A stretch of DNA of 64,000 nt. It comes from a virus. Below are positions 14,019-58,775 of this stretch, piece by piece. The translations under genes and the position numbers were made by a program. The stretch covers positions 14,137 to 78,136 of the IMG/VR virus record IMGVR_UViG_3300032770_000018; one strand, given 5' to 3'. Under the pieces are notes generated by a model. It was not told the origin of the DNA and did not search any database. It was given only the letters and a program-made list of their open reading frames with translations. Position 1 is the stretch's first letter. Each line of letters starts with the position of its first letter.

Positions 14019-14257
14019 CTGCCATCGAGAGAAACCAACCGCTAGACGTGCTGGACATTGAAATCATCCGGCACCGGGGCTATCAGGATGCACCTGACAA
14101 GGAACTTGCTGTGGTCCTAGGAATAACACGCCCCGCAATGGAGGCGAGGTTGAAAAAGCTTCGACGCATTTTCGGGCGCTGCGACCACCTGTTCATGCAC
14201 CAGCTTGCCACCGCTTTTGGTCTGGCCCCTGTAATGCCCGTGATTTATGCCTCCTAA
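14015..14257 (+). CDS. Small HTH (LuxR/sigma region 4-like) protein
   Basis: PDKELAVVLGITRPAMEARLKKLR. Confidence 0.6.
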   Translation: MTAIERNQPLDVLDIEIIRHRGYQDAPDKELAVVLGITRPAMEARLKKLRRIFGRCDHLFMHQLATAFGLAPVMPVIYAS

Positions 14258-26755: not shown

Positions 26756-26791
26756 TCGTTTCGATGTAGCGCTACAACGAGGGTTGAGTGC

Positions 26792-26826
26792 GGCGCCCCG
26801 GCGAAAGTCGGGGCGCCTGCTTTTTT
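26792..26826 (+). terminator. Rho-independent terminator
   Basis: GGCGCCCCGGC-GAAA-GTCGGGGCGCC stem-loop then TGC-TTTTTT. Confidence 0.85.
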
Positions 26827-26883
26827 GCTTTGCTTGGTTGGCGATTCGGTGCAATGCTCTGGCACAGTGAAAATCGAAATCCA

Positions 26884-34914: not shown

Positions 34915-35595
34915 ATGAGTATCTCGGCCGCAGATTTCAAAGCGCTTATCCCGGACCCATCAGCCTCGATGTGCGGGAACTTCATCAACAGCCTGCTCAA
35001 GCTTCCAGTCCTGCTCTACCAATGGATCCAGCAGGTGGAGGGCACGAGCTCCGGAGGTGGTGGCGGCGGCGGCGGCACAGTGGCTGGGACGCTCAAACCC
35101 GGGGACCTTATCTTCTCCGCCGCGCCGGCCGCTGCGGACTCGACGCGTCTCCTGTGCGACGGCACCGAATACCCTCAGGCGACATATCCGGCGCTCTTCG
35201 CGGCGATTGGCAACATCTATGGGACGCCCTCAAACAGCGCCAACTTTAAAGTCCCGAATTTCAGCGGGCGCTTCCCCGTCGGCGTCGGTAACTTTCCAAA
35301 CGCCGGGGCGGTATCGCTCGGAAACACCGGGGGCAGCGATCAGCAGGCGATCAGCGAGGCAAACCTGCCCCTCTATACACCGGGGCCACTCAAGTCCTCT
35401 AATGGAACGGACAAAGTTTGGACGGACGTCTATGGCACGGGCCCGACTAAAAACGGTCCTGGGTTCAACGCTACACAGGGCGCCCAGAATCAGCCGGAGG
35501 TAGACTTCTCCGACCCATCCTACGGAAGCAGTACCCCGACGCAGCTCCCAATTCTTCCGCCGTACGTTGGAACGTACATCTACATCAAGACCTAG
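34915..35595 (+). CDS. Phage tail collar domain protein
   Basis: LLCDGTEYPQATYPALFAAIGNIYG...FKVPNFSGRFPVG...LPPY...YIYIKT. Confidence 0.92.
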   Translation: MSISAADFKALIPDPSASMCGNFINSLLKLPVLLYQWIQQVEGTSSGGGGGGGGTVAGTLKPGDLIFSAAPAAADSTRLLCDGTEYPQATYPALFAAIGNIYGTPSNSANFKVPNFSGRFPVGVGNFPNAGAVSLGNTGGSDQQAISEANLPLYTPGPLKSSNGTDKVWTDVYGTGPTKNGPGFNATQGAQNQPEVDFSDPSYGSSTPTQLPILPPYVGTYIYIKT

Positions 35596-35598
35596 CCC

Positions 35599-37605
35599 AT
35601 GCCATCGCTCCAAATAAGAGGCGTCCCAGTGGCGCCGCTGACGGGGCCGCTCGACCTCCGAAGCGAAGTCGCACTGATGGAGGGATCGTCGCTTAGGATG
35701 CGGCAGAACTTCCAAGCGACCGGAAAGGGCAAGCTCACGCGTGGCTGTGGATGGGCCAAACTGCTGGACTCGGCGACCTACAACAACCAGGACTTTCACG
35801 ACCAACTCCTCTATTTCGGGCCCAATGGGGCGATCCGCCAGCCAGTCACAATGCTCTTCCCAGCCGAGTCCACGATGGGCGTCCGCAGCCTAATCCTGGC
35901 CACACAGAGCCAAATCTGCATGTTGGTCGAGTCCTCCGGCGACTACCGCGTTCTTGGAAACGCCTACGGTGGCGTCCCATCGGCATCGGCATCGGCGCCA
36001 CGCTTCAAAGCCGCCCAGGTCAACGACTACGTCGCTTTCACCAACGACTTCAACAAGCCGATGTATTACGTGCTCGAGGACGGCTCGGGCACGCTGCTCC
36101 AGACTTTCGACGACCTTGACACCATCGGGGTCAGCCGGGCCGCTGTAACCTGGGCCTGGAGAGGATGCTTGTTCTTCGCTGACGTGGTGATGGACGGCCA
36201 GCGGCAGAGCAACCTGCTGCTTTGGTCGGATTATCAGAACCCGACGAGCTTCGACCCAGCCGTCCTTTCGTCGATCACTGGCACGAAATATCTCAATCCA
36301 GGAGAGCGCATCTTGGCTGGCTTGGAGTTCGGAAACTCCTTCCTCATCTACACAACCGAGAACATTTGGGAGATGGTGGTCGTCGGCGGAGACCAGTCGT
36401 TCGACTTCGCTATCCGCTACCCAGGCTCAAAGAACCGTTCAATCGGCCTGCTGAAATACCCGAATACCCTCGCATCCCTCGGCGATGAGCACTGCTACCT
36501 GGCTGAGGACGGCCTTTACACGTTCAACCCGTACTATCTCAAGCCCGACCGCGTCGAGTGGGCGCACCTGGCGACGCCGGAGGTCCTGGACAACATTGAC
36601 TCGGCCAACTGCTCGGTCCACGTCGGGCTCTACAACAACTACGAGTACCTGCTTTCGGTCGCAAAGGTTGGGGACGCCAACAACTGCCCAAGTGTCACTC
36701 TCAGGCTGAATACCGCCTATAGCTGCGCCGACGTGGTCGACGCTGGCTTTACCGCCTTTTGCAATTTCCAGAGCTTCCTTTCCCCAACGGTTCGCGATTT
36801 CATCACCTCGAACGGAATATGCTCTTTGCAGGGAATGGCGAACCTCGGCTTCCCGCTAGGCCAGCAGGGCGTTGCAAAGCCTCCGGGAGCAATCACATCG
36901 GCATTCACCCCGGACTGCTTCTACACTAAGGTCACGCAGACGATTGGCGATGTGACCGTCGAGGACTGGAATCAGGCGCACGCCGCCCCAACGTCGCTTT
37001 GCGCCCTATTGGGCAACCAGACCTTTGATAGCGTCTGCCGGAAGTGCGCGGGGCCAACGTTGCTGGTCGCCGCCAGCTCGGACGACTGGTGCCTGAAGCA
37101 AATCGGAGGCGTTAGCTACCGTGAGGTCTGCCTGAATCCGTCCGCCATCGGGAGCTTCATCACCAATGCGGGATACAGCAGCGCCGTCGGGAACTACGCG
37201 CTGCGTGGGTATGACTCAATACTCAGGCTCTCTCCGATGTACATTGCCGGCGAGCGCGCGCCGATGATGCAACTCGACAGTGTGACGCTCGACTTCGAGG
37301 CTAGAGCATCAAGCCAACCGGCTTCGGTCTCACTGCGCGTTGGCGTCTCGGCCCAACCGACCGACCCCAACGGGCCCGACATGCAGTGGTTTGCCCACAG
37401 CGCCAAGACGCTGGCCCTTCAAAGCTCCACCACGCCAGCCCAGCGCCTCGCCGCCAATGTGACGCCCTCCCAAGTAATGCGCTGGCAGCTTTACCGAGTA
37501 GCCAGGATGCTCTACCTCGAATTGACCATTTCAGGGACGGGTGGGGACGCTGACTTTAGCCGCGTGACCGTTGAGGCCGGCCCGTCGCGCGCGAGGAACT
37601 TCTAA
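35599..37605 (+). CDS. Tail tubular/nozzle (stabilisation-type) protein
   Basis: 668 aa, beta-rich (LFFAD, LLWSD, LIYT..IWEM), located in the tail module. Confidence 0.6.
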   Translation: MPSLQIRGVPVAPLTGPLDLRSEVALMEGSSLRMRQNFQATGKGKLTRGCGWAKLLDSATYNNQDFHDQLLYFGPNGAIRQPVTMLFPAESTMGVRSLILATQSQICMLVESSGDYRVLGNAYGGVPSASASAPRFKAAQVNDYVAFTNDFNKPMYYVLEDGSGTLLQTFDDLDTIGVSRAAVTWAWRGCLFFADVVMDGQRQSNLLLWSDYQNPTSFDPAVLSSITGTKYLNPGERILAGLEFGNSFLIYTTENIWEMVVVGGDQSFDFAIRYPGSKNRSIGLLKYPNTLASLGDEHCYLAEDGLYTFNPYYLKPDRVEWAHLATPEVLDNIDSANCSVHVGLYNNYEYLLSVAKVGDANNCPSVTLRLNTAYSCADVVDAGFTAFCNFQSFLSPTVRDFITSNGICSLQGMANLGFPLGQQGVAKPPGAITSAFTPDCFYTKVTQTIGDVTVEDWNQAHAAPTSLCALLGNQTFDSVCRKCAGPTLLVAASSDDWCLKQIGGVSYREVCLNPSAIGSFITNAGYSSAVGNYALRGYDSILRLSPMYIAGERAPMMQLDSVTLDFEARASSQPASVSLRVGVSAQPTDPNGPDMQWFAHSAKTLALQSSTTPAQRLAANVTPSQVMRWQLYRVARMLYLELTISGTGGDADFSRVTVEAGPSRARNF

Positions 37606-43780: not shown

Positions 43781-44878
43781 ATGGCGTACGGCAGCGATTT
43801 TTCAGCCGCTCAGTCGGCGGCACTTCAGGAAAGGGGATTGGCCCAGTCCCAGGCGCAGTTCGACGAGAGCGAGATGCAGAGGGCGCTCCAGTTTGCAACC
43901 CAGGCGGGTGCGGCTCAGCGCCAGTTCCAATACCTGAGGGATGTGGTAAACCCCACAGAGTGGGCGATGCGTGGCCGGCAGTTGGACATTGAGCAGGCCC
44001 GCGCGGACAGGGCCCTGAGCATCGAGCAGCGCCGGGCCGACACCGCCCAAGGCTATCTCGACATCTACAAGAAGCAGATGGACACCGCTGCCGCCCAGGG
44101 CACGCCCGCGCAGATTAAAGACCACGAGTTTGCTTTTGTGGCTGCCGCTCAGGACGCCGAGCGCGGAATGTTCGACTCCCCACAGCACGTCTCCCAGCTT
44201 TACCCCGCACTCTCGCCAGCCGAGGCCAACCTGATGTATCAGCGCAGCGCGGCGGTGCGGCCAAGCGTCGAGGCGCAATACCGGACGGCGGAGAACGCGC
44301 GGTCGCTCCTCAACGCCTACGATGCGACGAACATGCAGTTGCTGCCGAATTACGTGGACCCGACCGGGCGCCCAACCATCGCACCCGTCCACTGGTTTGA
44401 CAGCCAACAGACAGTGGCCCAGAAGCAGCAGCACAATGCGGCGTTGCTGATGCGAAATCGCCTGGACCAGACAGGCATCATTCCGAATCTGCGAAAGAGT
44501 CCGCTACTGAGCTACGACGCGGAGAGCGGGCAGTGGCAGAACAACGTTCCTCAGCCGCGCTGGTTTCCGACGGGCGGTACTCCAACACCCACCGGGCCAT
44601 CCACTGAGGCACCGATGGGCTGGCAGCCCACGACTGGCGGTGGCTGGTTAAAGCCAGTCCTGCCGGCCGGACCGCCCGCGCCTTCTCCGGGCCGTAACAT
44701 CACCTATATCTCTCCGCCGCAGGTTCCGGGGTCGTCCGGCATGGGCAATCCGATGACCCAGCGGAAGTACACGCCTTTTGTCTATAACCGCGTGAACGAG
44801 CTGGTGAATCGTATGGGAATGGACCCGTCGGCAGCACTCAGGCAGGCTCAGGCCGAGGACCAGGCACTCTCTCAGTAA
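43781..44878 (+). CDS. Internal virion/ejection protein (putative)
   Basis: Q/A-rich helical protein preceding the giant gene. Confidence 0.6.
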   Translation: MAYGSDFSAAQSAALQERGLAQSQAQFDESEMQRALQFATQAGAAQRQFQYLRDVVNPTEWAMRGRQLDIEQARADRALSIEQRRADTAQGYLDIYKKQMDTAAAQGTPAQIKDHEFAFVAAAQDAERGMFDSPQHVSQLYPALSPAEANLMYQRSAAVRPSVEAQYRTAENARSLLNAYDATNMQLLPNYVDPTGRPTIAPVHWFDSQQTVAQKQQHNAALLMRNRLDQTGIIPNLRKSPLLSYDAESGQWQNNVPQPRWFPTGGTPTPTGPSTEAPMGWQPTTGGGWLKPVLPAGPPAPSPGRNITYISPPQVPGSSGMGNPMTQRKYTPFVYNRVNELVNRMGMDPSAALRQAQAEDQALSQ

Positions 44879-44924
44879 ATCTAATTTCCGTTGATATGCC
44901 CGGGTTCCGTGCTAAAACGGCGCC

Positions 44925-47900
44925 ATGGCTTTTCTGACACCAGAGGAGATCGACGCGATAGGCGAAACGCCATCCGGCGCGGCACCACGTTCAATGGAGC
45001 GCGTGCTGACGCCCGACCAGATTGACCAAATCGGCCAGGGATCAGCACTCAGAAGCCGTCAAGAGATCGACACCCGCTCGTTTCAGACGCCCAGCATCGC
45101 GTCGCACCAAGCCACTTTCTTTCCCCGACCTGGCCCGACTGCGCCCTCGGGAGTGCCTGTAGAGCCAATTACGGCGCCCGACATTGCTGGCGGCGCGGCG
45201 GAGGCGGTGCAGGAATACCCCAAGAACGTCGGTAAGATCCTGTCCCTCGGGTACGCGGGCGCGGCTGACGTTACCTCGCAGGCCATGGGGCTGCCAAAGG
45301 CCCAGGCGGATGCGACCGGCCAGACCGAGCCTGATAGCTGGGCTAACATCAAGGCTGTTCTCAACGAGGAAGACCTGCCGATGGACCAGATAATCAGGCA
45401 GACCCCAGGGCTGCCCGGCATGTTGGCCAAGGCTGGCAAAATGTGGTTGGACCTCATCCCGAGAATCTATCTGATGCGCGGATTTGGCGCGGCTGGCATG
45501 GGGCCGGCAACGGCTGGGGCGCTCGCATTCGGCACGAAACCAACCGGCAGCGGCATTGACCCGGTTGGCGCGGCGCTGGGCGCGCTGATGCCCGGAGTCC
45601 AGGAAGTTGGCCGAACTCTTGGGGGTAGCCTGGCCGATTCGCTGATGCGGCGCGGGCTCATCAACGCGGGCGACAAGTTCACACGCAACCTCGTTGAGGA
45701 AGTTGGGGGTGTTGGCGCAATCCAAACTCTTAACGAAGCGCTCAATTCGCCGCAGCTTTACCAGCTTTACCAGCAGGACCCCCATCAGTTCTGGAGCCAG
45801 ATCGGGGCGGACACTCTTGGAAGCGCGGCGTTCATGCTGGTTGGCGCCCGGGATTGGGCGACGGGGCCCGGACCGTGGAGCAGCGCCTTTATGCGGGCGG
45901 TCGAGAAGACCTACACGCCGGAAGACCTCAAGGACATTTACCTGAGAGTCAACCGCGGGGAAGCCACCCAGGAAGAGCAGCAGATTGTCCGGTTCATCAA
46001 CACGAAGGTCAGCAGCCCGGGCGAGGCAATTCGCGGGGGTGCGACCATCCGGACGGAGACCCCGATCTTCACCAGCCCATTCTGGCAAAAGTTTTTCGGC
46101 CTGGCAGCCAAGGACCCTGAGATCCGGCTGACAGGGGCGCCGGGACAGCAACCGCCGGCCGCGCCGGCAGCAACAGCGGCACCGCAGCCAAGGCCCGGCG
46201 GACGGCCGCTCTTGCTGGGAACAGGAGAGGCAGATGCCACTACTCAAGAGCAGCAGCCAGGAAGCGTTCCACCGCAACGTGGCGGAACTATACCGCAGCA
46301 ACCAGGACAAGCCCCCGGAGGAACGGCGGTCGCGCCAGCAGATACTGGCAATCGCCTACCGGGTGCAGCGGGGAGCCCACCGGGAGGAATCCCAGCGGGC
46401 ACGCCGCCGACCACGCCAACGCCCGTCCCGCCTGCGCCAAAGCCAGCGGCGGGGGGCAAGCCTCCGGCGGTAGCGCCCGACTGGAAAACCATCAAGCCCG
46501 ACGACATTTCGGCAATGCCGGCGGAGACCTTTGGGCCGTGGTACGCGTCGCTCGTGGTAAACCGGAAGCCTTTGCAGGATCGGCTGGCCAAAGAGGAAAC
46601 GGCGGACACTCTCGCCCAGCATCTCGCGGCGGCCACCACTGGTGCGGGGCTAGTCCGGCGCATGGCCGAGGCGGAAACCGATCCCGCCAAGCGGCAGGAC
46701 TTGATGAACCGCTACCTCGCGGCCACGCAGAAGGTTCAACTGTTCCACGAGGCCCTTGGAATAAAAAATGGAATAATTGCCAAGGGACCTGCCAAGCCAT
46801 CTCTGCCAATAAACCCAGCGACCATTGGGCTACCCCAGTGGCGGCAACAGGACCACAACGTCACTCGCAGCGGCAAGGACAGCTACTACGTTCCAACCAC
46901 CGGAGACCGCACACTATGGCCGGGCGTCACCAGCAAGCGCCGGGTGGTGGACATGCAGTATTTCCTGGAGAAGCTGAAGCGCGGCGAGATCGGCCAGGAA
47001 GAATACAACCGACAGATTCAAGGCATCCGGGACAACCCGATGTATGGAAAGCCCGAGCCTGTGCCGCCACCCGCGGCTCCGAAATGGAAGGACATCGGAC
47101 CCAACAGCAACGGCGACACCGTCTTTGAGGATGACAACGGTGTCCGATCGATTCTGCGAGGCAGCGTCAGGGTTACCGAACCGGTGCGGATGATACCAAC
47201 CCGAGAAGGCGTCCAGACCGCGACCGGAGACCGGACGGGCACGGAGTTTGAGACCGCAACGGAGGCCAGGAAGCGCACGTCCCCCGAAGCCGGAAACGCT
47301 CTCCGCGCCCTCGTCAACAGCGCGGAGAACAACCAGCAAAAGGCTGCGGAGGTTAAGCGGCTGGCCGATAAAGAGGGCGTCACGGTCAAGCAGATGCAGG
47401 AGCGCATCGAGGCCGAGGTGGTGAAGATGGCCAACGAGACTGCGCGACGGCCAGACCTCTCGCCAAAAGAAAAGTTCCAGGAACTGATCGCCCTCTACAA
47501 CCGCCAGCCGGTTTTCTCCGCGCGGACCAGCACCAGCGTCGAGAATCAAGCCTACTCGACGCCCGCGCCAATCGCTTTCGCTACCGGCTACATGGCGGAC
47601 GTCGGACCATCCTCCAGCCAGTACGACGGCACGGGCGGCAATGGGATGCTCCTCATCGGCGGGGACATCGCGCATTCATGGGCCAATGAACTCGACCCCG
47701 CGCGGCAGGCGGCGCTCAAGGCGCTGGGTGTCGGAATCGTCACCGGCAACGACGCGACGACCTTCCGTCCGAACGTGAAATACGATGTAGTGCGGCTCAA
47801 TCCGCCCTTCGGCTCGATCGGCAACACGCTCTACGACGGGTTTGGCATCAGCAAGCTCGAACACCTGATCGCCCTCAAATCCCTCGAGGCGATGAAGAAC

Positions 47901-50900
47901 GACGGTACCGCCGCGGTAATCCTCGGGGCAACCATGCAGCCGCAGCAGAAGGTGGTCAAAGGCGCACAGTGGGTTTTCGAGAATTACCTCTATGGCCACT
48001 ATCACGTTGCCGCAAACTTTGAAGTCTCTGGCGATCTCTACGCCAAGCAGGGAACGAAGTGGCCGATTCGGGTGATCATCATTGCCGGGCGCCGGGCGAC
48101 TCCGCTGACGGGCGAGCTGGCGCCGGCGAGCGTGCAACGCCTGGGCATGTTCGACGAACTATGGACCCAGGCCGAAAGGACTCACGATGACGTTGTTAGA
48201 GCAAAAGAAGCCCTGGTGTCCGGTCGAGAGCCCGGACTACCTGTGCCTGCTGGGGCCAAACCAGGCCCCGCCAAAGGACAAACTCCGGTTCCTCTTCCTC
48301 CAACAGGACCTCCTGGAACTCCTGGTAAAGGAGGCAAGCCACAACGAGGTGGAGGAGGCAAACCGACGCCTGCTGGAAAACCTACAGGAGGACTTCCTGG
48401 TCAACCTCCCGTGCAAGCTCCTGGCGGACCCGGCGGGACCCCACCAACTGCTGTTCAACCCGGCGCCGGAGGGGACAAAACTGTCGGAGTGGAAGGAGGA
48501 ACTCCCGGAAAAACTGGCGCTCCCGGAAATGCCCCAGGCGCAGGCGGCGGCGCTGGCAAAGAGCCTCAGCCTGGAAAGCTTCCTGGCAAGGGTCCTGTAA
48601 GGGGCGGCCGAAAGGCTGACGACCTCTCCGGGATGGCCGACGATGAGTTGGATAACCTACTCGACGCGGCGGTCCAGGAGAATCAGCCGGCTCCGGCTCA
48701 GGCACCGAAAGCGGCGCCGGCGCCGAAGGCATCAACCTCGGGCCAACGCGGCGGCGCGCTTCCCGGCGGCAAGGCCCAGGCGCCGAAGCCTGCGCCAGCG
48801 CCGAAGCTTTCGGACGCAGCCAAAGACGCGGCCAAGGCGTTCGACGAAGGGATGAAAGGCCTTAACGACCTCTTCGGAGGCGGAGGGCTGGTTGGTAGTG
48901 GGCCAGCGTTCAACGAAGACACCTACCAGAAGGCCAAGGGCCATTTCAAACAGGCATACGACGCGTTTGTGAGCATGGGTCGCACACTCAAGGAGTTCGT
49001 GGCCGAGTGTCTGCGCCGCTGGGGCAATAACGTGCGGGACTACATCCGCCGGTTCATCAAGGACATGCAGGCCGAACAGGAGGCCAAGACGGAGATCGAA
49101 CCGGGGAAGGCCAACGCCTTGCAGGATGTTTACGAGCCGCGCTCGGAGGCGACGCCGCTGGGAACGCTCACTCCGAAGAACATCTCGGTCGGGGAGCACG
49201 CGGCGCTCGATGCCCTCAAAGCCCGGGTTGGTTCGCTCGACAACTACGTGGCGGACAAGCTCAATATGCAGCCGGACGAGGTGAAACAGGTCCTGGCCGG
49301 CGAGCAGGTTGACGGCGTGGCACAGGGGATTAACCAGGTCGAGACCGGAGGGGCGGTCATTATCGGAGACCAAACGGGTATCGGTAAAGGGCGCCAGGGA
49401 GCCGGGATGCTGCGATACGGCATCGTTAATGGAGCGGTCGCCGTGTTCATGACCAAGGACCCGAAGCTCTTCTCAGACATGCACGGGGACCTTGCGGACA
49501 TCCACACGCAGATCCGTCCATTCATCATGGGCAGTCCGGCAAAGGCCAGCATCGTCGGCAGGGACGGCCAGGTGATCCACCGTGCTCCCGGGCTTGAGGT
49601 CCAGCGGCGCGAAATGGCACGCATTCTCCAGGGCGGCTGGGCCAACAGTGGCTACAACTGCATCTTTCTCACCTACTCGCAGGTCAACGATCGGAACGAA
49701 CGGCAGCAGTTCCTCGAGCGGTTGGCGGCTACCAATCCCACGCTGATCGTGATGGATGAGGCTCACGAGGCGGCTGGCGACTCGGGAAGCTCGATGCAGG
49801 CGGCATTCATCACCGGCGGTCAGGTCCAGCGCGGGTCGGGGGCGCAGCGGAAGACCATCACGGTACCCGGACTACTCAACCAGCAGGGAACCCGAACGGC
49901 GCCGGGCGGGGTGGTTTACATGAGCGCCACTTTCGCCAAACGGCCGGAGAACATGGCGTGCTATTTCCGCACGGCCCTCAGCCGCTCGGCCCAGAACTTC
50001 AATCAGATCGTCCAGGCAATGAAACGCGGCGGGGTCGCGCTGCAGCAGGCGGTGAGTGAGGCGCTGGCCAAGGCCGGCCAGTACATGCGGCGCGAGCGCG
50101 ACTTCTCCGGCGTGCGCTACGACATGAAAACCATCAAGGTCGCCGGCGAGGGGGCTTTGAAAGGTGAGGTTGACGAGGTTACCGAGGTACTGAGCCAGAT
50201 CGTGGATTTCAGCCACAAAATCCGCGACCGCGTGCAAGCCCAGGGCGGAGGCGCGAGCAGCACCGCCATGACAGCCGCCCAACAGGACATGACGGATTTC
50301 GCGGCCATCGTTCACAACCAGATTTCCCAGTTGCTGCTTGCCGCCAAGGCGGACGCGGTCGTTCAGGAAGCGATCGCGGCCAAAGCGAAGGGCGAGAAAC
50401 CAGTCATCGCCCTGATGAACACGATGGAGACGTTCCTGGATAACTACACGACCGACCACGACATCCAGCCCGGGCACGCCATTAAGCTCGGCTGGCAGGA
50501 GTTGCTGAAGTACGCGCTGACTCGCACGCTTCGGGTGACGGAAAAACTACCCAACGGCGACAAGAACATCTACTCGGTTGACCCGGAGGAATTCGGCCTG
50601 GGCGACGCCTACCGCGCGGTCGAAGCGGCGGCCGACGCCATCTCCAGCAAGTTCCCAGTCTCGCCCATTGACTACATCATCCAGCGGCTAAAGGCGGCTG
50701 GCGTCTCGATGGTCGAGCTTACCGGCCGGCAGAGCGGCATCGAATATACCGACTTTGAGAAAAACGAGGGCATTTACCGGACGTTCAAAAAGGCGAACAA
50801 GAACCAGGTGGTTAACGGGTTCAACGGCGGGAAGTACGACGGGATGCTCCTTAATGCCAGCGGTAGCACCGGCCTGAGCGCCCACGCGAGCACCACCTTC

Positions 50901-53900
50901 GATGATAAGCGCCCCCGCCACATGATGATCGTGCAGCCGGCGCTGGACATCAATGTCTTCATCCAGACGCTGGGCCGCATCCTGCGCACTGGGATGGTGA
51001 AGCTGGGACTCGGGGAGGATGGCCAGCCATACGGCGCGCGCTACAGCCATTTGGTTTTGCCGCTACAGGCCGAGTTGCGGCCGGCGGCTATGGCAGCAAA
51101 GAAGATGAAGAGCCTCAATGCCAACACGACGGCAGAGGCCGACGCGGCGATCAAGATCGAGGCGGAGGACATCTTCAACCGCTATGGCGACCGCATCTGC
51201 GCAGAGTTCCTGGACCAGCACCCCGACATTCAGCGCCTGCTCGAACTGCCGATTGATGTGAACGACGACGGGACGGTTGAGGTTCCGCGCGACGTGGCTC
51301 GCAAGATGACCGGCCGGATGGCGCTCATGCCCGATGAGGACCAACGCAAAGCCTACGAGGAGCTCATGCCGGCCTACCGGACGCTCATCGAGCAGTTGAA
51401 GGCGACGGGCGAGTACGACCTGGAGATTGTCGTGCACGACGACTGGGATGGTATCCAGCGCGACGATCAGGAGCTACAGGCCGGGACCGACGACAGCAAT
51501 ATCTTCACCGCCGGAGTGAGAATGCAGCGGTGGGAGGTGCGCGATATGCGCCATGTCCCCACCGGACAGGAGATGGAATCCGAATTCAAGCGCGTGTTGG
51601 GCAGCAAGGCGAAGGTCCTGGAGACCTGGAGAGAGGTCCGGGTGAAGGGCGACAAGCGGATCGAAGATGCCCAGGCGACGCTCGCGCGTCAGCAGGCCGA
51701 ATGGGATGCCGCCGACAAGCGCAAGGACCAGATGAGCGAGGCCGAGGCGCAGGGCCACATGGCACAGGGCGTCCACCTCGCGGGGATGCGCGGCATCGTT
51801 GACAGCATGGCCCATCGCTGGGACCACGCGAAGGGTTTGGTGGACAGCCTGCTTGAGCGCGCGGGCCAGGTTGTGGAGCTGACCAACCCGGAGACGGGCG
51901 ACGCTTTCAACGGGATGCTGGTGGACGTGAAATACCCGACCGGCAAGCGCTATACGATGGCGGCTTTTCGGTTCAAGTTTCTGCTCCATTCCCCCGGCGG
52001 GGTGGCCTACATCACCGGCGCTCAGTTCGGGGGCGGCCTCTGGAACATCGATCAGAGTGATAAGGAAGTGGCGGACCTGGGGCCCGGCGACAAGAACGCG
52101 CGTTACCAGCGGTGGTTCATCACCGGCAACCCCATCGGCGGGTACGTCGCCACTGGGGGCCGCGGCAAAATGGTGCGCTTCAAATCTCAGGATGAGCGGA
52201 CGATTACTGGCCTGATGATGCCCACGAACTGGGGGCCGCAGAATTTGGCCAATGACCCGAGGCTGGACCTCATCAGCGGGGCCGCCGTCAGACACTTTCT
52301 CAACAACTACGGGATGGTTGGGCGCAACGGCGTGCCACTCGAATGCGGGAACGTCTGCCGGTTGACGCGCCAATCTTGGGGCTCGCGCAGCTACACCATC
52401 AGCGTGCCGGCCGCCCGGAGCACCGGCTCTCCGATCTATCTCGACCGGGAACTGCGGCGGACCACCGGCGACTTCACCAAGACCGGCAGCCGGATGACCG
52501 CCAACGTGGACGATGACGACATCAACAAGGTGGCCGACCGGATCATGGCGATCACCAAAGCGCGGTTCCGGCCGGTCGGGGATACTGAGAGGCTAATTCC
52601 GCAAGTGTCGGAGTCCAATCGGCGTGGCCGTCCAAGGCAGGGCGCGCTGGCGTTGCGGCAGGCCGGTGGGGTTGATGTCTCAATGGAGGGCAAGACCTTC
52701 ATCCTGTCTCGACCGGGCGTCCCAATCCAGGGGCTTCCAGCTTTCCACGGGACACCGCACGACGTTGACCGATTCTCGCTGGATAAGATTGGCACCGGGG
52801 AAGGTGCGCAGGTTTACGGCTGGGGGCTTTACTTCGCAGAGCGTGCCGAAGTGGCTCACAAATACAGAAAAGCTCTGACTTTGCAAAATTGGCGATCTCT
52901 TGAGGATTTAGCGTCTCTTTTGGTTACTGAGACTGGGGGTGATAAGCAAGCGGCAAAAGACCTGGCCAATACCCGCCTGAATCAGTCCCATATCAAAGCG
53001 TTTCAGGATGTTATCCCGCTAATAGATTCCGCGAAACAGCGCGGCAGCCTCTACAGTGTTGACCTCGACGTTGAGCCGGAGCAGTTGCTCAATTGGGATA
53101 AGCCATACATCGAACAATCCCCGGAGGTTAGGCGGCGGCTTGAAGAATCCGAATTAGGTCCTTGGATCAGGGCTAACCGCCCCAACATCGGAAACATCTA
53201 CGAGCGTTTATCGGAGCTTTTTAAGTCCCCCGCCAAGAACCTGCCCGATTGGGTAATTGAGTCTGAGATGTTCCGGGGTGAGAGCATGGTGGGAAGCGAC
53301 AAAAAGGCATCAGAATTTCTCAACTCGTTGGGCATCAAAGGCATTCGTTACCTTGACCAGGGAAGCAGGAGCCTGCCGCCGGTTCAGGTTGTCAAAATGG
53401 GAGACGGAAAATTCGGGGTTCTTTGGGGAAGCGATCCTGTGCCTGTTAATGGAAAATTCTACGAGACTGAGGAGCAGGCGCAGAAGGTCGCGGACGATGT
53501 CGCAATTAAGCCGACCTACAATTACGTCATCTTCGACGAGAACTCGATTAAGATCACCCACAAGAACGGCGAGCCAGTCACCGCCGACGAGATGCGGCAG
53601 GCGTCCCTCAAGAGCGCGGCAGACAATAGCCAGGAAGCCGCGCGCGCTGGCGTCCGGGAGGCTATGGGCCCATCAGACCTTCGGCGGATGATTAACGCGC
53701 CGGACGCCGGCTTGCCCGACGAGGCGGTCAATCTGCTCAACGAGTTTCTCGACAGCCCGCTCGCCGATTACTTGGAAGGCGTGAGGCTCCGGATTGCCGA
53801 CACCCTGGCCGACGGCTGGCAGGGCAGCTACTTCGAGAAGCTGGCGGAACTGGCGAGGACGGCTGACCCGCTAACCGGCATTCACGAGTTCCTGCACCGC

Positions 53901-56900
53901 ATATGGGAGATCCTCCCGCCAGACATCCAGAAGGAATTCGAGCGCCTGCGCGTCGAGGGACTCCGCAAGATGCTCGAGGAAGCGGTGGCGGCCGGACAGA
54001 TGGAACGGGCCAAAGCCATTCAGGACCTGATCGCCCGGCCAACCGCCGGCGCCGAGGAATTCCTGGCGCGCGGCTACCCGTCGATCCTGCTCAAGGACCT
54101 CTATCCGTATTCCAGCGCGGAGGAGAATTTCACCCACAGCGGCAGCGCGCGATTCAAGGAACGCGTGGGCTCTATGGTCGAGGGCTTCTGGTCGAGGGTT
54201 AAGCAGATCATCAGCGACTTCATCGCTGCTCTGAAGAAGGCGCTTAGGCTCAAACAGAATCAGGCACAGTGGCTGGACAACGTTCTACGTGGAAACTTCG
54301 ACCCCGCCGAGGCCGAGGATGTTTCCCGCGTTGAGCGCCAGGGCGCGCTGGGGGCCACGCCTCCCGAAGAATCGGAGCGTGCGGCGGCGATCAAGCGCGC
54401 TGAGGTGGAAGAGGAGCAGGAACAACCCGGAGTGCCGACCCAGGTCTTTGGCACGGTGGACCACGTTCGGGCACGCGAGCAGATAACCCCAAGCTCAATG
54501 GCCGACAGCATCGCCCACGCCGAATCTGTCTTTAAGCAGGCGGGTGTCCCATTCATCCGGGAGACCAACGGGCTATTGACCATCCAGCAAACCGGGTTCG
54601 AGATGAACGCTGAGGGCCGCAAGCTGCTGGACCTGCTGCGCCAGGAGATTGCGACTAAGAACCAACCGGGTAAGGCTGGTGACCTGCTGGCCGACCTGCT
54701 GAACACCATCGTCTATAACTTTCACCAGGGCACGATGTCGGAGTTCGAGCGGCCACTGAGGGAGGAGCTTTACGAGCTGGCTCAGTCTGACCGCAGCCAG
54801 CGTGGGCTCCAGCTTGGCGCTCTGGCGCTCTTCCGGCCCGACCTCGACTTCGTGGCCAAGAACGTGGATGTCGTGCTTCACCGCGTTTACTCGGACGCCT
54901 TCGGAGGGACAGAGATTGCCAGCGTGCTTAAGCGCGTGATGGAGAACTTCCGGCAGTATTTCACCGACGATGAGATCCGAGCGGCGCTGGCGAGCGCACC
55001 CGGGCTGGTTGACCTCGTGGACAAGATCATCGCGCTCAACCGTCGGGATGAGGGCGGCCGGGTTTACCGGCGGGTGCAGGCGATGCTCAAGCCCAAGAAC
55101 AAAAAGAAACTGAGCGCCCTCGAAGGCGACGCCAGGGTCCAAGAGGCGGTTGACCAGATCATCGAGAATGCGCGGCTGCTGGGTATTGAGCCGCAGAAGT
55201 CGCCTAACCCAAAGCTTTCGCCGTTGCACCGGCTGCTCCTGATGGTCACTCCAGGCAATGCCGATAAAATTGACGACCTCATCAGCCGAGCGGTCGCCGA
55301 GGGCGAGCGTAACGCCGGCATCAAGTGGGCGCTACGCCAGACCAAGACGCCGGATGAGCGCGCGGAGGCCGAGGCGCGGTTTGCCGCCGGGGAGGAACCG
55401 ACCGAGGACATGGTCGAGCAAGGGTTGGACCTCCCGGAGTTCGCCCACTGGCGGGCGCTTCGCGACGATTTGCTGGGCTACGAGCCGACGACCCTGAAGC
55501 TGGTTCAGGACCTGATCCGCGGCGACTTCAAGGGCACGCGCTTTGGCAAGCCGGAGAACCGACCAGCCGACACACGGCTGGACCTTAACAAGCTGGCGAC
55601 GCAGCCGGAGGAGGAGGTCCGCAGGGTTCTCGACGCCTACCTGGATAACATCGAGGCCAACATGGACGTCCGGAAGGCCGACGAGGATACCCAACAACGG
55701 GTGCGCGAGATGGTCGAGCGGGAGGTTGCCCACCAACTAGAGCAGGCCCGCGAGCGGTTCCGAAGCCCGATGTTCGCCCCGCCGAAGGACCCGCGCACCG
55801 CCCTAACGCCACAGCAGCAGATGGCCAAGCTGGTCAACGCCGGCCTATTCCGCGACCCGCGGGCTAACCTTGCAGAGATGGTCCAGCGCGTGGCCGCCAA
55901 ATCGCGCGTCGCACGGCTTACACCTGGGCTTCCCGATTTGGTCAAGCAGGTGTTCCAGACGCCGTTCTATCGGCAGTCTGACCTAGCCAAGCGCTTTGCC
56001 GACGACCTGGTCAACCGGCTGGGCGTCGCGCCTGAACAGGCGCAGAAGGCCGCTGAGGTGTTCGCGCAGGCATTCGACTCGCGGTTCACCCGGGCCAAAG
56101 AGCTTGCCCAGAAGCAGGTGGTGGCCTCCTTCACGCCGCTGGACAGGTCGGTCATTAAACCCGGCCGCCCGATCTGGCAGAAGATCGAGCGGGCGGTCAA
56201 CGCCGGGGTGTTCGACGCCGGCGAAGTCCTCAGGGAGATCGCGCGATCCCGCGGGTGGTCCATCCCGACCGACGCCCAGATCGCCAAGATGAAGGCGCTT
56301 TCCGAGCGCGAGCAGCGGTTACGCGACCTCACGACGGCTGAGCAGGCGGCGGCCGGTGACCGTCCAGAGGACATCGCCAAAGCCAAAGCCGAAAAGGCGG
56401 CAGCCACCCTCGAGGAGCGGGCGGCCCTTCACAAGCAGATGGGTGTCATGTGGTCGCGGATGACCCGGCCTATCTCCTGGGCCCACTGGTGGTCAACGCG
56501 CCGCAACTTCGCAGCCGCGCTCAACGAGCTTGAGACAGGCAATCTCCTGCTCAAGGTTGGTTTCCCGTTCCGGCTGGGCATCCACATCCTCACCCAGGGC
56601 GCGATGCACACGCCGACCCGAGCGATGGCCGCGGCGGTAGAACGCTGGCTGGCGGACCGCTCGGCGGCGCGCGAGACCAACCTTTGGCGTGACCTGCACC
56701 AGGCGGTCTCCGACGCCTACAAGCAGCGGCTGGCCGCATGGCGCCCGGCGCTGGTGTCGGCCAGGGCGGCGCTCGCGGGTCGTGGCGAAGCCCGCAACGT
56801 GGACAGGCTGATGACCGGCATCCAAGCGCTCGAACGGGCGTCCAGCCTGGCCGACGAGCTATCGGCACAGGGCAAATTCGCCCAAGCGTTTGTCGTCCGG

Positions 56901-58775
56901 CTGGTCGGACTAGTGCGGCTTAGCTTCCGATTCTGCCAAGCGTGGGACAACCTTCAGGGCACACCCGCGGAATTCCAGGAGATGCGCGAGCAGGTGATTA
57001 CCGGGCTGCGCGAGATGGGGCGCACGCCGGCGGAGGCGCAGGCACAGGCCGATCAGGTAATGGGCAACATGGGCGACGAATGGCAACTGGCCTATGCCAG
57101 GGCCCAGCAAATCTTCGAAGGCAACGGCTTGGAGGCAACGCCGCACGCCCTGTCAGAGGCAGCCTGGGAGATCGTAAAGTCCAACCAGTATCTGCGGATG
57201 CAGGCGCTCGGTCTGCCGGCCGACGCCTTCTTGGAAACCAATCGGCTCCTTCGCAGCACGCTCTCCTGGCAGGAGAGGGCGGTGACCGGGTTGGGTGGCG
57301 TCGTGGCCGGCGTGGCGCGCGGGGCCACCCGGCTGGGTGAGCACTTCGGAGTGCCGCTCGGGTTCACCCGGTTTGGCAACGCGATCGGCACGGGCATCAA
57401 CTACATGCTGATGTTCACGCCGCTCTACTCGCTGGCCAGCGTGAACTTGGGACAAGGCGCCGGTGGATCGACCTGGTTCCGAACCGAGAAGGACCGGCAC
57501 CAGCGGCGCATCCAGGCTCTCCTTGGGACAATCTGCGGGTCGGCCCTTCTGCTGCTGGCTGCCCTGGGCATCATCCGGGTGCGCAACAACTATCCAAAGG
57601 ACAAGAACGAGCGCGACGCCTGGGAGCGCAGCGGACGCAAACCGCACACCGTCGAGATACCCGTCGGAGATAACCAGTCGCTCATCATCAGCACGATCGT
57701 TGGACCGTTTGCAGCCTTTGGGCCGTACCTCGGCGCCGGCGGCGCCATCCGGGACCTCTTGGACAACCGCGCCAAGCAGCAGGCCAAACTCAACACCGAG
57801 GCGGCGGCGCGCGGCCTACCCGCCGGCAAGATTCGGCCGGTTGATATGGCGGACATGCTCGAGGTGGCCGCCGCCGCCGGAGAGCAGGCCCTAATGGGCA
57901 ACCGGACGCTCAGCGGTCTGGCAGCGAGCGTGACCGATTACGGTTCGTGGAATCTGCCGAAGCTGGTCGCCTCCCAGATGGCGCCGCTGGTTCCAGGACT
58001 GCCGGGCTACCAGGAGGCATCCCGGCTTGCTGGGGTGAACCTCGACGCCAAGATGGCCAGCTTCTGGGATTTCCTGGTGCCGCTTCCCAGCAGCCAGGCC
58101 CGTGCGGTCAACATGCTGGGGCAGCCGGTCACCGACGAGAACGACGCACGAAGGATCGTTCAAATCCTCACCGGCGGGACCTACCCGGTGCCGACGGACA
58201 CGCCGACGGCCCAAGCGGTCGCCGAATACGGGGCGCTCTTCTCGACCGGCTTTCGGCCTCCGGCGGTCGAGCCGAACCGCGGTTACGCCATTGGAGGCGA
58301 TTTCAGGCCGATGAACGACCAGGAGCTGGCACGCTACACCCAGATTCGGGGCGATAACCTCCGCAACGCGCTGGCGAGCATGGGGAGCAATCCCGACCCG
58401 GCAGACGTCCAGGCAGCCTACAAGGTGGCCAACCAGGAGGCCCTGCAGGCGGTCGGTGTGGATACGAGCTCGAAGGCGCCCACGGCCGGGAGGCAGACGG
58501 GGCAGCCTGCGCAGTCTCAGCAGCAGGCGCCCACACCCGGGACGCCGGGGTCACCCGCCGGCACGCCCAGCCGGACTGGTGTGGCGGCGCGCGGTGGCGG
58601 GATTCGACTCGGGACCCGGGGCGGCGCCCTGCGCCGGCCACCAGCAATGGGCCGAATGCGCCCTCCGGGAATGCACCGGGCGGCGATTTCGGGGGTTCGG
58701 GCGCGCGCTGGGAGTGGAATCGGACTTCCAAGGGGTCGAGGAATGCCCTCCCGGTCGAGCGCTTTTCGTCGCTAG
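44925..58775 (+). CDS. Giant polyvalent (DarB-like) ejection protein: N6-MTase + strawberry-notch SF2 helicase + ART-like domain + HExxH
   Basis: QAYSTP, GGNGMLL, ANELD, NPPFG; GDQTGIGKGR, TYSQ, DEAH, SAT, ELTGR, STGLSAHA, QTLGRILRTG; FHGT...IGTGEGAQVYGWGLYF...NYVIFDE; HEFLH. Confidence 0.9.
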   Translation: MAFLTPEEIDAIGETPSGAAPRSMERVLTPDQIDQIGQGSALRSRQEIDTRSFQTPSIASHQATFFPRPGPTAPSGVPVEPITAPDIAGGAAEAVQEYPKNVGKILSLGYAGAADVTSQAMGLPKAQADATGQTEPDSWANIKAVLNEEDLPMDQIIRQTPGLPGMLAKAGKMWLDLIPRIYLMRGFGAAGMGPATAGALAFGTKPTGSGIDPVGAALGALMPGVQEVGRTLGGSLADSLMRRGLINAGDKFTRNLVEEVGGVGAIQTLNEALNSPQLYQLYQQDPHQFWSQIGADTLGSAAFMLVGARDWATGPGPWSSAFMRAVEKTYTPEDLKDIYLRVNRGEATQEEQQIVRFINTKVSSPGEAIRGGATIRTETPIFTSPFWQKFFGLAAKDPEIRLTGAPGQQPPAAPAATAAPQPRPGGRPLLLGTGEADATTQEQQPGSVPPQRGGTIPQQPGQAPGGTAVAPADTGNRLPGAAGSPPGGIPAGTPPTTPTPVPPAPKPAAGGKPPAVAPDWKTIKPDDISAMPAETFGPWYASLVVNRKPLQDRLAKEETADTLAQHLAAATTGAGLVRRMAEAETDPAKRQDLMNRYLAATQKVQLFHEALGIKNGIIAKGPAKPSLPINPATIGLPQWRQQDHNVTRSGKDSYYVPTTGDRTLWPGVTSKRRVVDMQYFLEKLKRGEIGQEEYNRQIQGIRDNPMYGKPEPVPPPAAPKWKDIGPNSNGDTVFEDDNGVRSILRGSVRVTEPVRMIPTREGVQTATGDRTGTEFETATEARKRTSPEAGNALRALVNSAENNQQKAAEVKRLADKEGVTVKQMQERIEAEVVKMANETARRPDLSPKEKFQELIALYNRQPVFSARTSTSVENQAYSTPAPIAFATGYMADVGPSSSQYDGTGGNGMLLIGGDIAHSWANELDPARQAALKALGVGIVTGNDATTFRPNVKYDVVRLNPPFGSIGNTLYDGFGISKLEHLIALKSLEAMKNDGTAAVILGATMQPQQKVVKGAQWVFENYLYGHYHVAANFEVSGDLYAKQGTKWPIRVIIIAGRRATPLTGELAPASVQRLGMFDELWTQAERTHDDVVRAKEALVSGREPGLPVPAGAKPGPAKGQTPVPLPPTGPPGTPGKGGKPQRGGGGKPTPAGKPTGGLPGQPPVQAPGGPGGTPPTAVQPGAGGDKTVGVEGGTPGKTGAPGNAPGAGGGAGKEPQPGKLPGKGPVRGGRKADDLSGMADDELDNLLDAAVQENQPAPAQAPKAAPAPKASTSGQRGGALPGGKAQAPKPAPAPKLSDAAKDAAKAFDEGMKGLNDLFGGGGLVGSGPAFNEDTYQKAKGHFKQAYDAFVSMGRTLKEFVAECLRRWGNNVRDYIRRFIKDMQAEQEAKTEIEPGKANALQDVYEPRSEATPLGTLTPKNISVGEHAALDALKARVGSLDNYVADKLNMQPDEVKQVLAGEQVDGVAQGINQVETGGAVIIGDQTGIGKGRQGAGMLRYGIVNGAVAVFMTKDPKLFSDMHGDLADIHTQIRPFIMGSPAKASIVGRDGQVIHRAPGLEVQRREMARILQGGWANSGYNCIFLTYSQVNDRNERQQFLERLAATNPTLIVMDEAHEAAGDSGSSMQAAFITGGQVQRGSGAQRKTITVPGLLNQQGTRTAPGGVVYMSATFAKRPENMACYFRTALSRSAQNFNQIVQAMKRGGVALQQAVSEALAKAGQYMRRERDFSGVRYDMKTIKVAGEGALKGEVDEVTEVLSQIVDFSHKIRDRVQAQGGGASSTAMTAAQQDMTDFAAIVHNQISQLLLAAKADAVVQEAIAAKAKGEKPVIALMNTMETFLDNYTTDHDIQPGHAIKLGWQELLKYALTRTLRVTEKLPNGDKNIYSVDPEEFGLGDAYRAVEAAADAISSKFPVSPIDYIIQRLKAAGVSMVELTGRQSGIEYTDFEKNEGIYRTFKKANKNQVVNGFNGGKYDGMLLNASGSTGLSAHASTTFDDKRPRHMMIVQPALDINVFIQTLGRILRTGMVKLGLGEDGQPYGARYSHLVLPLQAELRPAAMAAKKMKSLNANTTAEADAAIKIEAEDIFNRYGDRICAEFLDQHPDIQRLLELPIDVNDDGTVEVPRDVARKMTGRMALMPDEDQRKAYEELMPAYRTLIEQLKATGEYDLEIVVHDDWDGIQRDDQELQAGTDDSNIFTAGVRMQRWEVRDMRHVPTGQEMESEFKRVLGSKAKVLETWREVRVKGDKRIEDAQATLARQQAEWDAADKRKDQMSEAEAQGHMAQGVHLAGMRGIVDSMAHRWDHAKGLVDSLLERAGQVVELTNPETGDAFNGMLVDVKYPTGKRYTMAAFRFKFLLHSPGGVAYITGAQFGGGLWNIDQSDKEVADLGPGDKNARYQRWFITGNPIGGYVATGGRGKMVRFKSQDERTITGLMMPTNWGPQNLANDPRLDLISGAAVRHFLNNYGMVGRNGVPLECGNVCRLTRQSWGSRSYTISVPAARSTGSPIYLDRELRRTTGDFTKTGSRMTANVDDDDINKVADRIMAITKARFRPVGDTERLIPQVSESNRRGRPRQGALALRQAGGVDVSMEGKTFILSRPGVPIQGLPAFHGTPHDVDRFSLDKIGTGEGAQVYGWGLYFAERAEVAHKYRKALTLQNWRSLEDLASLLVTETGGDKQAAKDLANTRLNQSHIKAFQDVIPLIDSAKQRGSLYSVDLDVEPEQLLNWDKPYIEQSPEVRRRLEESELGPWIRANRPNIGNIYERLSELFKSPAKNLPDWVIESEMFRGESMVGSDKKASEFLNSLGIKGIRYLDQGSRSLPPVQVVKMGDGKFGVLWGSDPVPVNGKFYETEEQAQKVADDVAIKPTYNYVIFDENSIKITHKNGEPVTADEMRQASLKSAADNSQEAARAGVREAMGPSDLRRMINAPDAGLPDEAVNLLNEFLDSPLADYLEGVRLRIADTLADGWQGSYFEKLAELARTADPLTGIHEFLHRIWEILPPDIQKEFERLRVEGLRKMLEEAVAAGQMERAKAIQDLIARPTAGAEEFLARGYPSILLKDLYPYSSAEENFTHSGSARFKERVGSMVEGFWSRVKQIISDFIAALKKALRLKQNQAQWLDNVLRGNFDPAEAEDVSRVERQGALGATPPEESERAAAIKRAEVEEEQEQPGVPTQVFGTVDHVRAREQITPSSMADSIAHAESVFKQAGVPFIRETNGLLTIQQTGFEMNAEGRKLLDLLRQEIATKNQPGKAGDLLADLLNTIVYNFHQGTMSEFERPLREELYELAQSDRSQRGLQLGALALFRPDLDFVAKNVDVVLHRVYSDAFGGTEIASVLKRVMENFRQYFTDDEIRAALASAPGLVDLVDKIIALNRRDEGGRVYRRVQAMLKPKNKKKLSALEGDARVQEAVDQIIENARLLGIEPQKSPNPKLSPLHRLLLMVTPGNADKIDDLISRAVAEGERNAGIKWALRQTKTPDERAEAEARFAAGEEPTEDMVEQGLDLPEFAHWRALRDDLLGYEPTTLKLVQDLIRGDFKGTRFGKPENRPADTRLDLNKLATQPEEEVRRVLDAYLDNIEANMDVRKADEDTQQRVREMVEREVAHQLEQARERFRSPMFAPPKDPRTALTPQQQMAKLVNAGLFRDPRANLAEMVQRVAAKSRVARLTPGLPDLVKQVFQTPFYRQSDLAKRFADDLVNRLGVAPEQAQKAAEVFAQAFDSRFTRAKELAQKQVVASFTPLDRSVIKPGRPIWQKIERAVNAGVFDAGEVLREIARSRGWSIPTDAQIAKMKALSEREQRLRDLTTAEQAAAGDRPEDIAKAKAEKAAATLEERAALHKQMGVMWSRMTRPISWAHWWSTRRNFAAALNELETGNLLLKVGFPFRLGIHILTQGAMHTPTRAMAAAVERWLADRSAARETNLWRDLHQAVSDAYKQRLAAWRPALVSARAALAGRGEARNVDRLMTGIQALERASSLADELSAQGKFAQAFVVRLVGLVRLSFRFCQAWDNLQGTPAEFQEMREQVITGLREMGRTPAEAQAQADQVMGNMGDEWQLAYARAQQIFEGNGLEATPHALSEAAWEIVKSNQYLRMQALGLPADAFLETNRLLRSTLSWQERAVTGLGGVVAGVARGATRLGEHFGVPLGFTRFGNAIGTGINYMLMFTPLYSLASVNLGQGAGGSTWFRTEKDRHQRRIQALLGTICGSALLLLAALGIIRVRNNYPKDKNERDAWERSGRKPHTVEIPVGDNQSLIISTIVGPFAAFGPYLGAGGAIRDLLDNRAKQQAKLNTEAAARGLPAGKIRPVDMADMLEVAAAAGEQALMGNRTLSGLAASVTDYGSWNLPKLVASQMAPLVPGLPGYQEASRLAGVNLDAKMASFWDFLVPLPSSQARAVNMLGQPVTDENDARRIVQILTGGTYPVPTDTPTAQAVAEYGALFSTGFRPPAVEPNRGYAIGGDFRPMNDQELARYTQIRGDNLRNALASMGSNPDPADVQAAYKVANQEALQAVGVDTSSKAPTAGRQTGQPAQSQQQAPTPGTPGSPAGTPSRTGVAARGGGIRLGTRGGALRRPPAMGRMRPPGMHRAAISGVRARAGSGIGLPRGRGMPSRSSAFRR
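46234..46473 (+). CDS. Nested small basic phage protein (MPL.K..S...N..E family) in the +1 frame of the giant gene
   Basis: MPLLKSSSQEAFHRNVAEL...QQILAIAY; AGGAGAGG just upstream of the ATG. Confidence 0.7.
   Translation: MPLLKSSSQEAFHRNVAELYRSNQDKPPEERRSRQQILAIAYRVQRGAHREESQRARRRPRQRPSRLRQSQRRGASLRR
48187..48600 (+). CDS. Nested acidic helical protein in the +1 frame of the giant gene
   Basis: AAAGGA 6 nt before the ATG; L/E-rich amphipathic sequence; host frame becomes P/G-rich with A/T third positions over this span. Confidence 0.6.
   Translation: MTLLEQKKPWCPVESPDYLCLLGPNQAPPKDKLRFLFLQQDLLELLVKEASHNEVEEANRRLLENLQEDFLVNLPCKLLADPAGPHQLLFNPAPEGTKLSEWKEELPEKLALPEMPQAQAAALAKSLSLESFLARVL

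Follow-up and report, generated by a model that had tools for sequence, protein, structure and literature searches.

A conserved small gene of the phage family phrog_2423 was found wholly within a giant open reading frame (ORF), on the same strand and in a different frame, in a stretch of 64,000 nucleotides (nt) from the IMG/VR virus record IMGVR_UViG_3300032770_000018 (positions 14,137 to 78,136; this whole stretch is referred to as the window). The phage record to which the window belongs is complete, at 78,136 bp, and has direct terminal repeats and a GC content of about 60%. On balance, we favour the reading that the small gene is genuine and probably functional, that it was engulfed by a fusion of the two genes flanking it, and that ribosomes in the giant frame would now read it as a linker, while its own product would come from internal initiation. 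It could be established that it belongs to this family, that it is nested here but free-standing in its relatives, that selection acts on the small frame only and that the DNA sequence is correct. The coordinates and the +1 frame given for the nested ORF in an earlier note, made from the sequence of the window alone, were exact. The features needed for the argument are the following.

46234..46473, + strand: nested ORF (P0001), 79 amino acids (aa), in the +1 frame of the giant ORF, with an ATG start and a TAG stop.
46223-46230, + strand: Shine-Dalgarno (SD)-like sequence AGGAGAGG, with 6 nt between its AGGAG core and the nested ATG.
46234..46401, + strand: conserved core, nested residues 1-56, a member of phrog_2423 predicted to form a two-helix hairpin.
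46402..46473, + strand: Arg-rich C-terminal tail, nested residues 57-79, unconserved in the family and overlapping the P/T/A linker of the giant frame.
44925..58775, + strand: giant ORF of 4616 aa, a putative anti-defence gene of polyvalent, DarB-like injected-effector type, present as one gene in a public collection (P0012).
44925..46130, + strand: N-terminal module of the giant product, whose homologue is the 392-aa protein P0013.
46131..46490, + strand: linker of low complexity in the giant frame, 78% P/G/Q/A/T over aa 403-522, which reads the small gene in its -1 frame.

The small protein had been said to resemble a small basic phage family, and homology searches with the 79-aa product bore this out. 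P0001 matched phrog_2423 with an E value of 1.5e-7 (32.3 bits; profile positions 1-48 of 52 covered by residues 1-56), and when all six frames of the whole 78-kb phage were scanned with this family, the site of the nested ORF was the sole match (E 7e-8). A phmmer search of 1.84 billion representative proteins with the 56-residue core returned 9 matches at E<1e-3, the best at 1.7e-15 with 71% identity, and all 9 were free-standing proteins of 48-73 aa that aligned from Met1. In an alignment of 23 family sequences, the invariant residues M1, N15, L19, N23, R32, I37 and I40 are all retained in P0001, as are the nearly invariant P2, L3, E18, K26, R34, Q36 and A41.

It is this homology, and not the length of the ORF, that surpasses chance, because alternative-frame ORFs are common in a T-poor gene. 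The + strand of the giant gene is only 15% T, so an absence of starts and stops in its alternative frames is to be expected, and these frames hold several other ORFs of 69-196 aa; by its length alone, the nested ORF is within chance. A PHROG search gave no match for 5 other alternative-frame ORFs of the giant gene.

From the family alignment, AlphaFold2 predicted a two-helix hairpin with helices at residues 9-24 and 34-58. The block-mean predicted local distance difference test (pLDDT) score was 92-96 over residues 1-50 and 89 over residues 51-60, falling to about 60 in the tail (60-79). The small protein had no match in a sequence search of the PDB and none at E<=0.001 with Foldseek, where the best rows were generic helical hairpins, and no NCBIfam family was found for it. 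Against Pfam DUF6496 (PF20106), P0001 gave no hit and fails the gathering threshold. This domain was matched weakly by 5 of the 23 family members (best E 8.7e-4) and is found on 11% of the members of one Atlas cluster, which would make any relationship between phrog_2423 and DUF6496 a distant one at most. A word-index search with the 79-aa protein found nothing, a DNA search of 45400-47400 against phages gave no match, and no close relatives of the small gene were found in IMG/VR or in prokaryote genomes.

The family was described in the earlier note as usually encoded by a stand-alone gene, which agrees with what was seen at its other loci. All 34 family loci in IMG/VR are free-standing genes of 45-57 aa, none of them inside a long ORF. 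A tblastn search matched 139 phage records, each of them weakly (E 0.03-4), and both of the annotated records that were opened, Escherichia phage VEc3 (gp56, YP_009796121.1) and Klebsiella phage 6939 (gene 0008, URY99187.1), show a free-standing gene. In these SP6-like phages the family gene lies directly 3' of a long gene of tail-fibre or tail-spike type, which carries a tail-fibre annotation in VEc3 and a hypothetical one in Klebsiella phage 6939. Elsewhere, it was found after a terminase gene and a portal-sized gene and before the major head protein (locus L006), or directly upstream of a portal gene (locus L034), and a scaffold gene is also among its neighbours. The members of phrog_2423 are therefore usually genes of virion and head modules; their products are basic, have about 50 aa and are predicted to fold as a helical hairpin. 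P0001 shares with them the motif MPL...N(I/V)xEL...N..K...R.R.QI.AIA, a basic C-terminus and an alignment from Met1. It departs from the family norm in being 79 aa long, in carrying an Arg-rich tail and in lying fully inside another ORF.

The closest orthologue, P0003, is a 73-aa protein and the best phmmer match; it is encoded on the metagenome contig Ga0137425_1003362 (3031 bp, referred to as L004). It is 71-73% identical to the nested protein, and the DNA is 80% identical across the small gene only. Both flanks are unalignable between L004 and the window, and the giant proteins share one 67-aa stretch only. The relevant features of L004 are as follows.

L004, 189-191: TAA that ends the upstream ORF, seven bases before the small-gene ATG.
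L004, 199-420: small gene (P0003), free-standing, +1 relative to the giant frame as in the window.
L004, 421-521: spacer of about 100 nt, AT-richer and not coding-looking in the giant frame (third-position GC 0.41).

After the spacer, an open-ended ORF of >836 aa matches DarB-like antirestriction and DNA methyltransferase PHROGs. The two phages are thus alike in that the small gene, with its Arg-rich tail and in the same relative frame, lies directly upstream of a DarB-like, methyltransferase-bearing giant gene. They differ in that, in L004, a TAA ends the upstream gene, a non-coding-looking spacer precedes the giant gene and the small gene is not nested. The upstream gene of L004 is also an unrelated one. 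In both phages, therefore, the small gene is at the 5' edge of a DarB-like giant, free-standing in L004 and nested in the window.

Some further observations were made on L004. Its upstream and giant ORFs share a frame that has no stop from position 192 on, so that the lone TAA at 189-191 is what prevents a fusion like that in the window. A Lys-rich mini-ORF of 15 codons with a good AAAGGAG site lies at 457-504 and shares the frame of the small gene; only 19 nt separate its end from the TTG start of the giant ORF, and it could be a coupling or leader element. At 1834-2205 there is a globular-looking +1 ORF of 123 aa under a G/P-rich linker, just before the methyltransferase domain of the giant ORF. 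This ORF had no PHROG hit and is not homologous to the window ORF that starts at 48187 (described below).

Comparison with L004 also allowed selection to be measured in each frame. Over the 52 ungapped codons shared by the two sequences, a single pair with 35 differences, the ratio of non-synonymous to synonymous rates (dN/dS) was 0.24 for the small frame (Fisher p = 0.001), whereas the giant and third frames gave 0.98 and 1.0, respectively. In the small frame, 16.5 synonymous differences were counted over 36 sites, compared with 18.5 non-synonymous differences over 120 sites. Selection confined to the small frame argues that the nested nucleotides evolved as a gene for the small protein, with the giant-frame reading apparently free to drift, as would be the case in a disordered linker. 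The giant frame, for which the earlier note had proposed a check of constraint, is therefore unconstrained over the overlap.

The giant ORF was searched for domains. Pfam identified AAA_34 (aa 1477-1739, 2.7e-21) and Helicase_C_4 (aa 1915-2168, 1.2e-9), which together make a strawberry-notch-type helicase; there was also a sub-threshold ART-PolyVal match (aa 2605-2649, 9e-5), and the translation contains an NPPF methyltransferase motif. Because the helicase, the ART-PolyVal match and the NPPF motif occur in one protein, we classify the product, from its sequence, among the polyvalent, DarB-like proteins as defined by Iyer et al. 2017 (PMC5512222). When all 4616 aa (44925-58772) were scanned against PHROGs, no family was obtained at E<=1e-5, although the giant protein of L004 matches DarB-like PHROGs.

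Only one homologue was found for the first 400 aa of the giant protein, namely P0013, of which residues 3-387 of 392 align with giant residues 2-402 at 39% identity (E 3e-79). P0013 is free-standing, and its last residue lies 5 positions past the end of the homology, where the giant protein turns into a P/A-rich linker. No other giant protein with this N-terminus was found, and no relatives of it were found in IMG/VR or in prokaryote genomes. Within the module, conserved Gly/Ala-rich hydrophobic stretches occur at window positions 45400-45620 (giant aa about 160-235); the LIPRIYLMRG...GAALGALMPG region is nearly identical in P0013 and is reminiscent of membrane-active segments of ejection proteins, although the module was not assigned to a family.

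The host frame over the nested ORF was claimed to be only a P/G/Q linker, and the giant-frame translation of the nested 240 nt is indeed 79% P/G/Q/A/T. On either side of the conserved core and its start (46131-46233 and 46402-46490), the flanking linkers consist of GC-rich P/A and P/T runs with a giant-frame third-position GC of 0.66-0.75, which is usual for this gene; over 46402..46473, where the tail overlaps the linker, it is 0.75. No start codon with an SD sequence was found in the giant frame 3' of 46473.

Upstream of the giant ORF there are matches to tail proteins (34915-35595) and to a virion structural protein (35599-37605); its immediate neighbours are without a family. In the + strand block upstream of the tail genes, a PAPS-reductase-like gene (26788-27693; phrog_424, E 3.6e-36) and a glycosyltransferase gene (31841-32878; phrog_2170, E 9.6e-27) were also seen.

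The start of the nested ORF had been credited with a strong SD sequence and an ATG. Both are present, and the ATG stands as claimed; the SD sequence is less telling than it appeared, as SD cores occur at background frequency in this phage. Four-base cores at -16 to -4 precede 5 of the 46 window ORFs of at least 120 aa, compared with 10.7% at random, a rough count because the start was taken as that of the longest ORF. This suggests that the host of this phage may largely use SD-independent initiation. AGGAG occurs 28 times on the + strand within the giant gene, and only the copy before the nested ORF has a start at 4-10 nt that opens an out-of-frame ORF of >3 aa. This motif is unpaired in the centroid fold. 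The nested AGGAG would thus be either a chance occurrence or a special signal for internal initiation. The RNA fold around the nested start was no more stable than that of shuffled sequences (z = -0.45), no promoter- or terminator-like sites were found in 45600-46900, there was no Rfam match over 44000-49000, and repeats in 45900-46800 were short chance pairs only.

Taken together, these results lead us to infer the fusion history, the internal initiation and the continued function of the small gene. Ancestrally, there would have been three units: a P0013-like gene, the small gene and a polyvalent gene. The P0013-like gene, of about 400 aa, would have lost its stop codon and become joined in frame to the downstream DarB-like polyvalent gene. 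Ribosomes starting at 44925 would then read the small gene in its -1 frame, and the resulting P/G/Q/A/T linker, disordered and unconstrained, would connect the N-terminal module to the effector domains. Synthesis of the small protein would be a separate event, with ribosomes initiating internally on the same late mRNA at AGGAG-N6-ATG. This fusion history is proposed because P0013 covers the N-terminal module only, because the small gene of L004 is separate and because there is no SD-bearing start 3' of 46473. The absorption of a formerly separate gene, as put forward in the earlier note, fits the separate, 71%-identical orthologue in L004 and the end of P0013 at the start of the linker. The fusion may not be brand new, as is suggested by flanking linkers that look like mature giant-frame coding sequence, unlike the AT-richer spacer of L004.

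That the nested gene is still translated appears probable from its dN/dS, from the invariant residues it has kept, from its being the sole copy in the genome and from the SD sequence together with the ATG. If the phage needs this protein, the nested copy must supply it, as it is the only one present. A search for RNA runs containing this stretch gave none. The claim that standard annotation would miss such a gene is borne out in a collection of 15 billion proteins, in which the 4616-aa product is present and the 79-aa product is absent.

Several points weigh against this explanation. The overlap is not conserved: the nested arrangement occurs in this genome only, L004 having a stop before the small gene, and a recently engulfed gene would look intact whether it was used or not. 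The dN/dS values come from a single pair, and part of the divergence arose on the lineage with the free-standing gene. The order of P0013-like gene, small gene and polyvalent gene is seen in no single relative, and the end of P0013 is known from the protein and not as a stop codon on a contig. As SD cores occur at background frequency in this phage, the nested AGGAG could be due to chance (about 2% background). The codon-position GC shifts to the +1 frame over 46095-46484, and we rejected this shift as independent proof of coding, since 48135-48674 shifts too without a detectable homologue; P/G low complexity with A/T-ending codons can give such a shift by itself.

The stretch 48135-48674 is the only other long part of the giant gene with a +1 GC switch, with a giant-frame third-position GC of 0.2-0.3 compared with 0.77 overall. 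It contains, at 48187-48600, an L/E-rich +1 ORF of 137 aa under a G/P/K low-complexity reading of the host frame. For this ORF there was no PHROG hit and no phage tblastn hit, and its Atlas recognition was below threshold.

The main rival to a gene that is still in use is a relic, meaning that the engulfment was recent and that the small gene, now neither translated nor needed, has had too little time to decay. The nested state in one genome only would be expected from this, an SD sequence is atypical of the phage, and the internal start could be blocked by ribosomes that arrive from 44925. We nevertheless think a relic unlikely. The flanking linkers look like mature giant-frame coding sequence (third-position GC 0.66-0.75), whereas the corresponding L004 stretch is AT-richer and non-coding-looking; the invariant residues, the ATG, the stop and the SD sequence all survive; and the nested ORF, with its dN/dS of 0.24, is the only copy in the phage.

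Alternatively, the small gene and its SD sequence could have recombined as a cassette into the linker of a giant gene that was already fused, the frame staying open by chance. Phage genomes are mosaic, and the high DNA identity of the small gene to L004 between unalignable flanks fits a mobile module, or one that is much more conserved. However, the N-terminal module exists in a free-standing form that ends exactly at the linker, the L004 small gene occupies the same position directly upstream of a polyvalent gene, and no giant protein was found that has this N-terminal module without the insert. Fusion is preferred over insertion because an ancestral position between two genes needs fewer assumptions, and we regard an insertion as rather improbable.

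Another explanation is that the nesting is an artefact, in which an assembly or sequencing indel erased the upstream stop and there are really three genes. The record is a metagenome assembly, and a TGA in the +1 frame at 46129-46131 lies a few codons from the end of P0013. However, an independent Logan contig (77,944 bp, 57x) had no differences or gaps over 44800-47800, in a comparison made on contigs and not raw reads, with this contig coming from the probable source run. A second wetland sample from another study gave an identical contig of 157 nt over 46151-46307, which covers the SD sequence, the ATG and the first 25 codons. Moreover, there is no plausible separate start for a downstream gene after 46473. 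An artefact is therefore very improbable.

Programmed frameshifting could, in principle, join the small domain to the giant protein, either by two shifts within the giant ORF or by a -1 shift out of the small gene into the giant frame, which would make the small domain the N-terminus of the polyvalent protein. The Arg-rich tail, which does not belong to the family, lies over an open stretch of the giant frame in both the window and L004, and the giant frame of L004 lacks the start codons ATG, GTG and TTG from 192 to 522. Few starts and stops are expected at 15% T, however, and all 43 relatives end as small proteins. In addition, no slippery heptamer of the form X XXY YYZ was found in the small-gene frame of the window or of L004, and positions 421-521 of L004 do not look like coding sequence in the giant frame, with a third-position GC of 0.41. 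We give this recoding hardly any credence.

Finally, although alternative-frame ORFs of this length are common in the T-poor giant gene, a chance ORF with a spurious resemblance is effectively refuted by the homology (E 1.5e-7, 7e-8 and 1.7e-15, alignment from Met1, the invariant residues, an orthologue with 80% DNA identity and control ORFs without hits).

Beyond the engulfment of a working gene, which we favour, the arrangement itself may have been maintained. The small protein could be a dedicated partner of the polyvalent protein, with its synthesis coupled in cis by internal initiation within the linker, a proposal that we consider speculative and doubtful. The same low expectation applies to the roles such a partner might have, for example as a packaging adaptor, a chaperone or a nucleic-acid-binding helper. 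If it were true, the position at the 5' edge of the giant gene in two unalignable phages would reflect a functional pairing, and the linkers of polyvalent proteins could generally hide unannotated genes.

The nested gene has practical consequences for annotation, as gene callers drop real conserved genes that lie inside giant phage ORFs. It is therefore worthwhile to scan every frame of the linkers in polyvalent, DarB-like giants. The giant ORF of the window resembles the P1 DarB-type polyvalent proteins (PMC5512222) in apparently uniting a strawberry-notch helicase with an N6-methyltransferase motif and an ART-PolyVal-like domain, and perhaps in its place downstream of tail and virion-structural genes. 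The full text of that paper contains neither 'overlapping' nor 'frameshift', and it does not describe genes nested in such linkers.

Phage genes nested in the +1 frame of another gene are classical, with lambda Rz1 in Rz and phiX174 E in D and B in A as examples. The gene described here likewise sits wholly within a larger one, shares its strand, is read in the +1 frame and would start at an initiation site of its own. In lambda Rz1 and in phiX174 E and B, the nested gene is young and overprinted and the host frame is ancestral. In the window, by contrast, the nested gene is old and widely conserved, and it is the host frame that would be the new, unconstrained reading.

Such nesting has been termed an 'internal overlap', and in overprinting it is the nested or extended frame that is young and often disordered (PMC8227390). 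Judged from the sequences compared here, the polarity in the window would be reversed, with an old gene nested in a young, disordered host frame that arose by fusion. This would be the opposite route to overprinting: two neighbours fuse, and the old conserved gene that lay between them survives whole within the fusion.

In hepadnaviruses, the spacer of the polymerase overlaps preS (PMC8227390). As in the window, a tolerant linker of a multidomain protein shares its nucleotides with a functional gene region, and it is the linker frame that is newer and that ties domains into a single polypeptide. Hepadnaviruses are animal viruses with a different genome logic, and their overlap is ancient and family-wide, compared with one phage here. 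By analogy, the hepadnavirus spacer would nevertheless be the closest conceptual counterpart within PMC8227390, and the window, with a linker-frame dN/dS of about 1, offers a testable example of how tolerant linkers could allow long overlaps at little cost.

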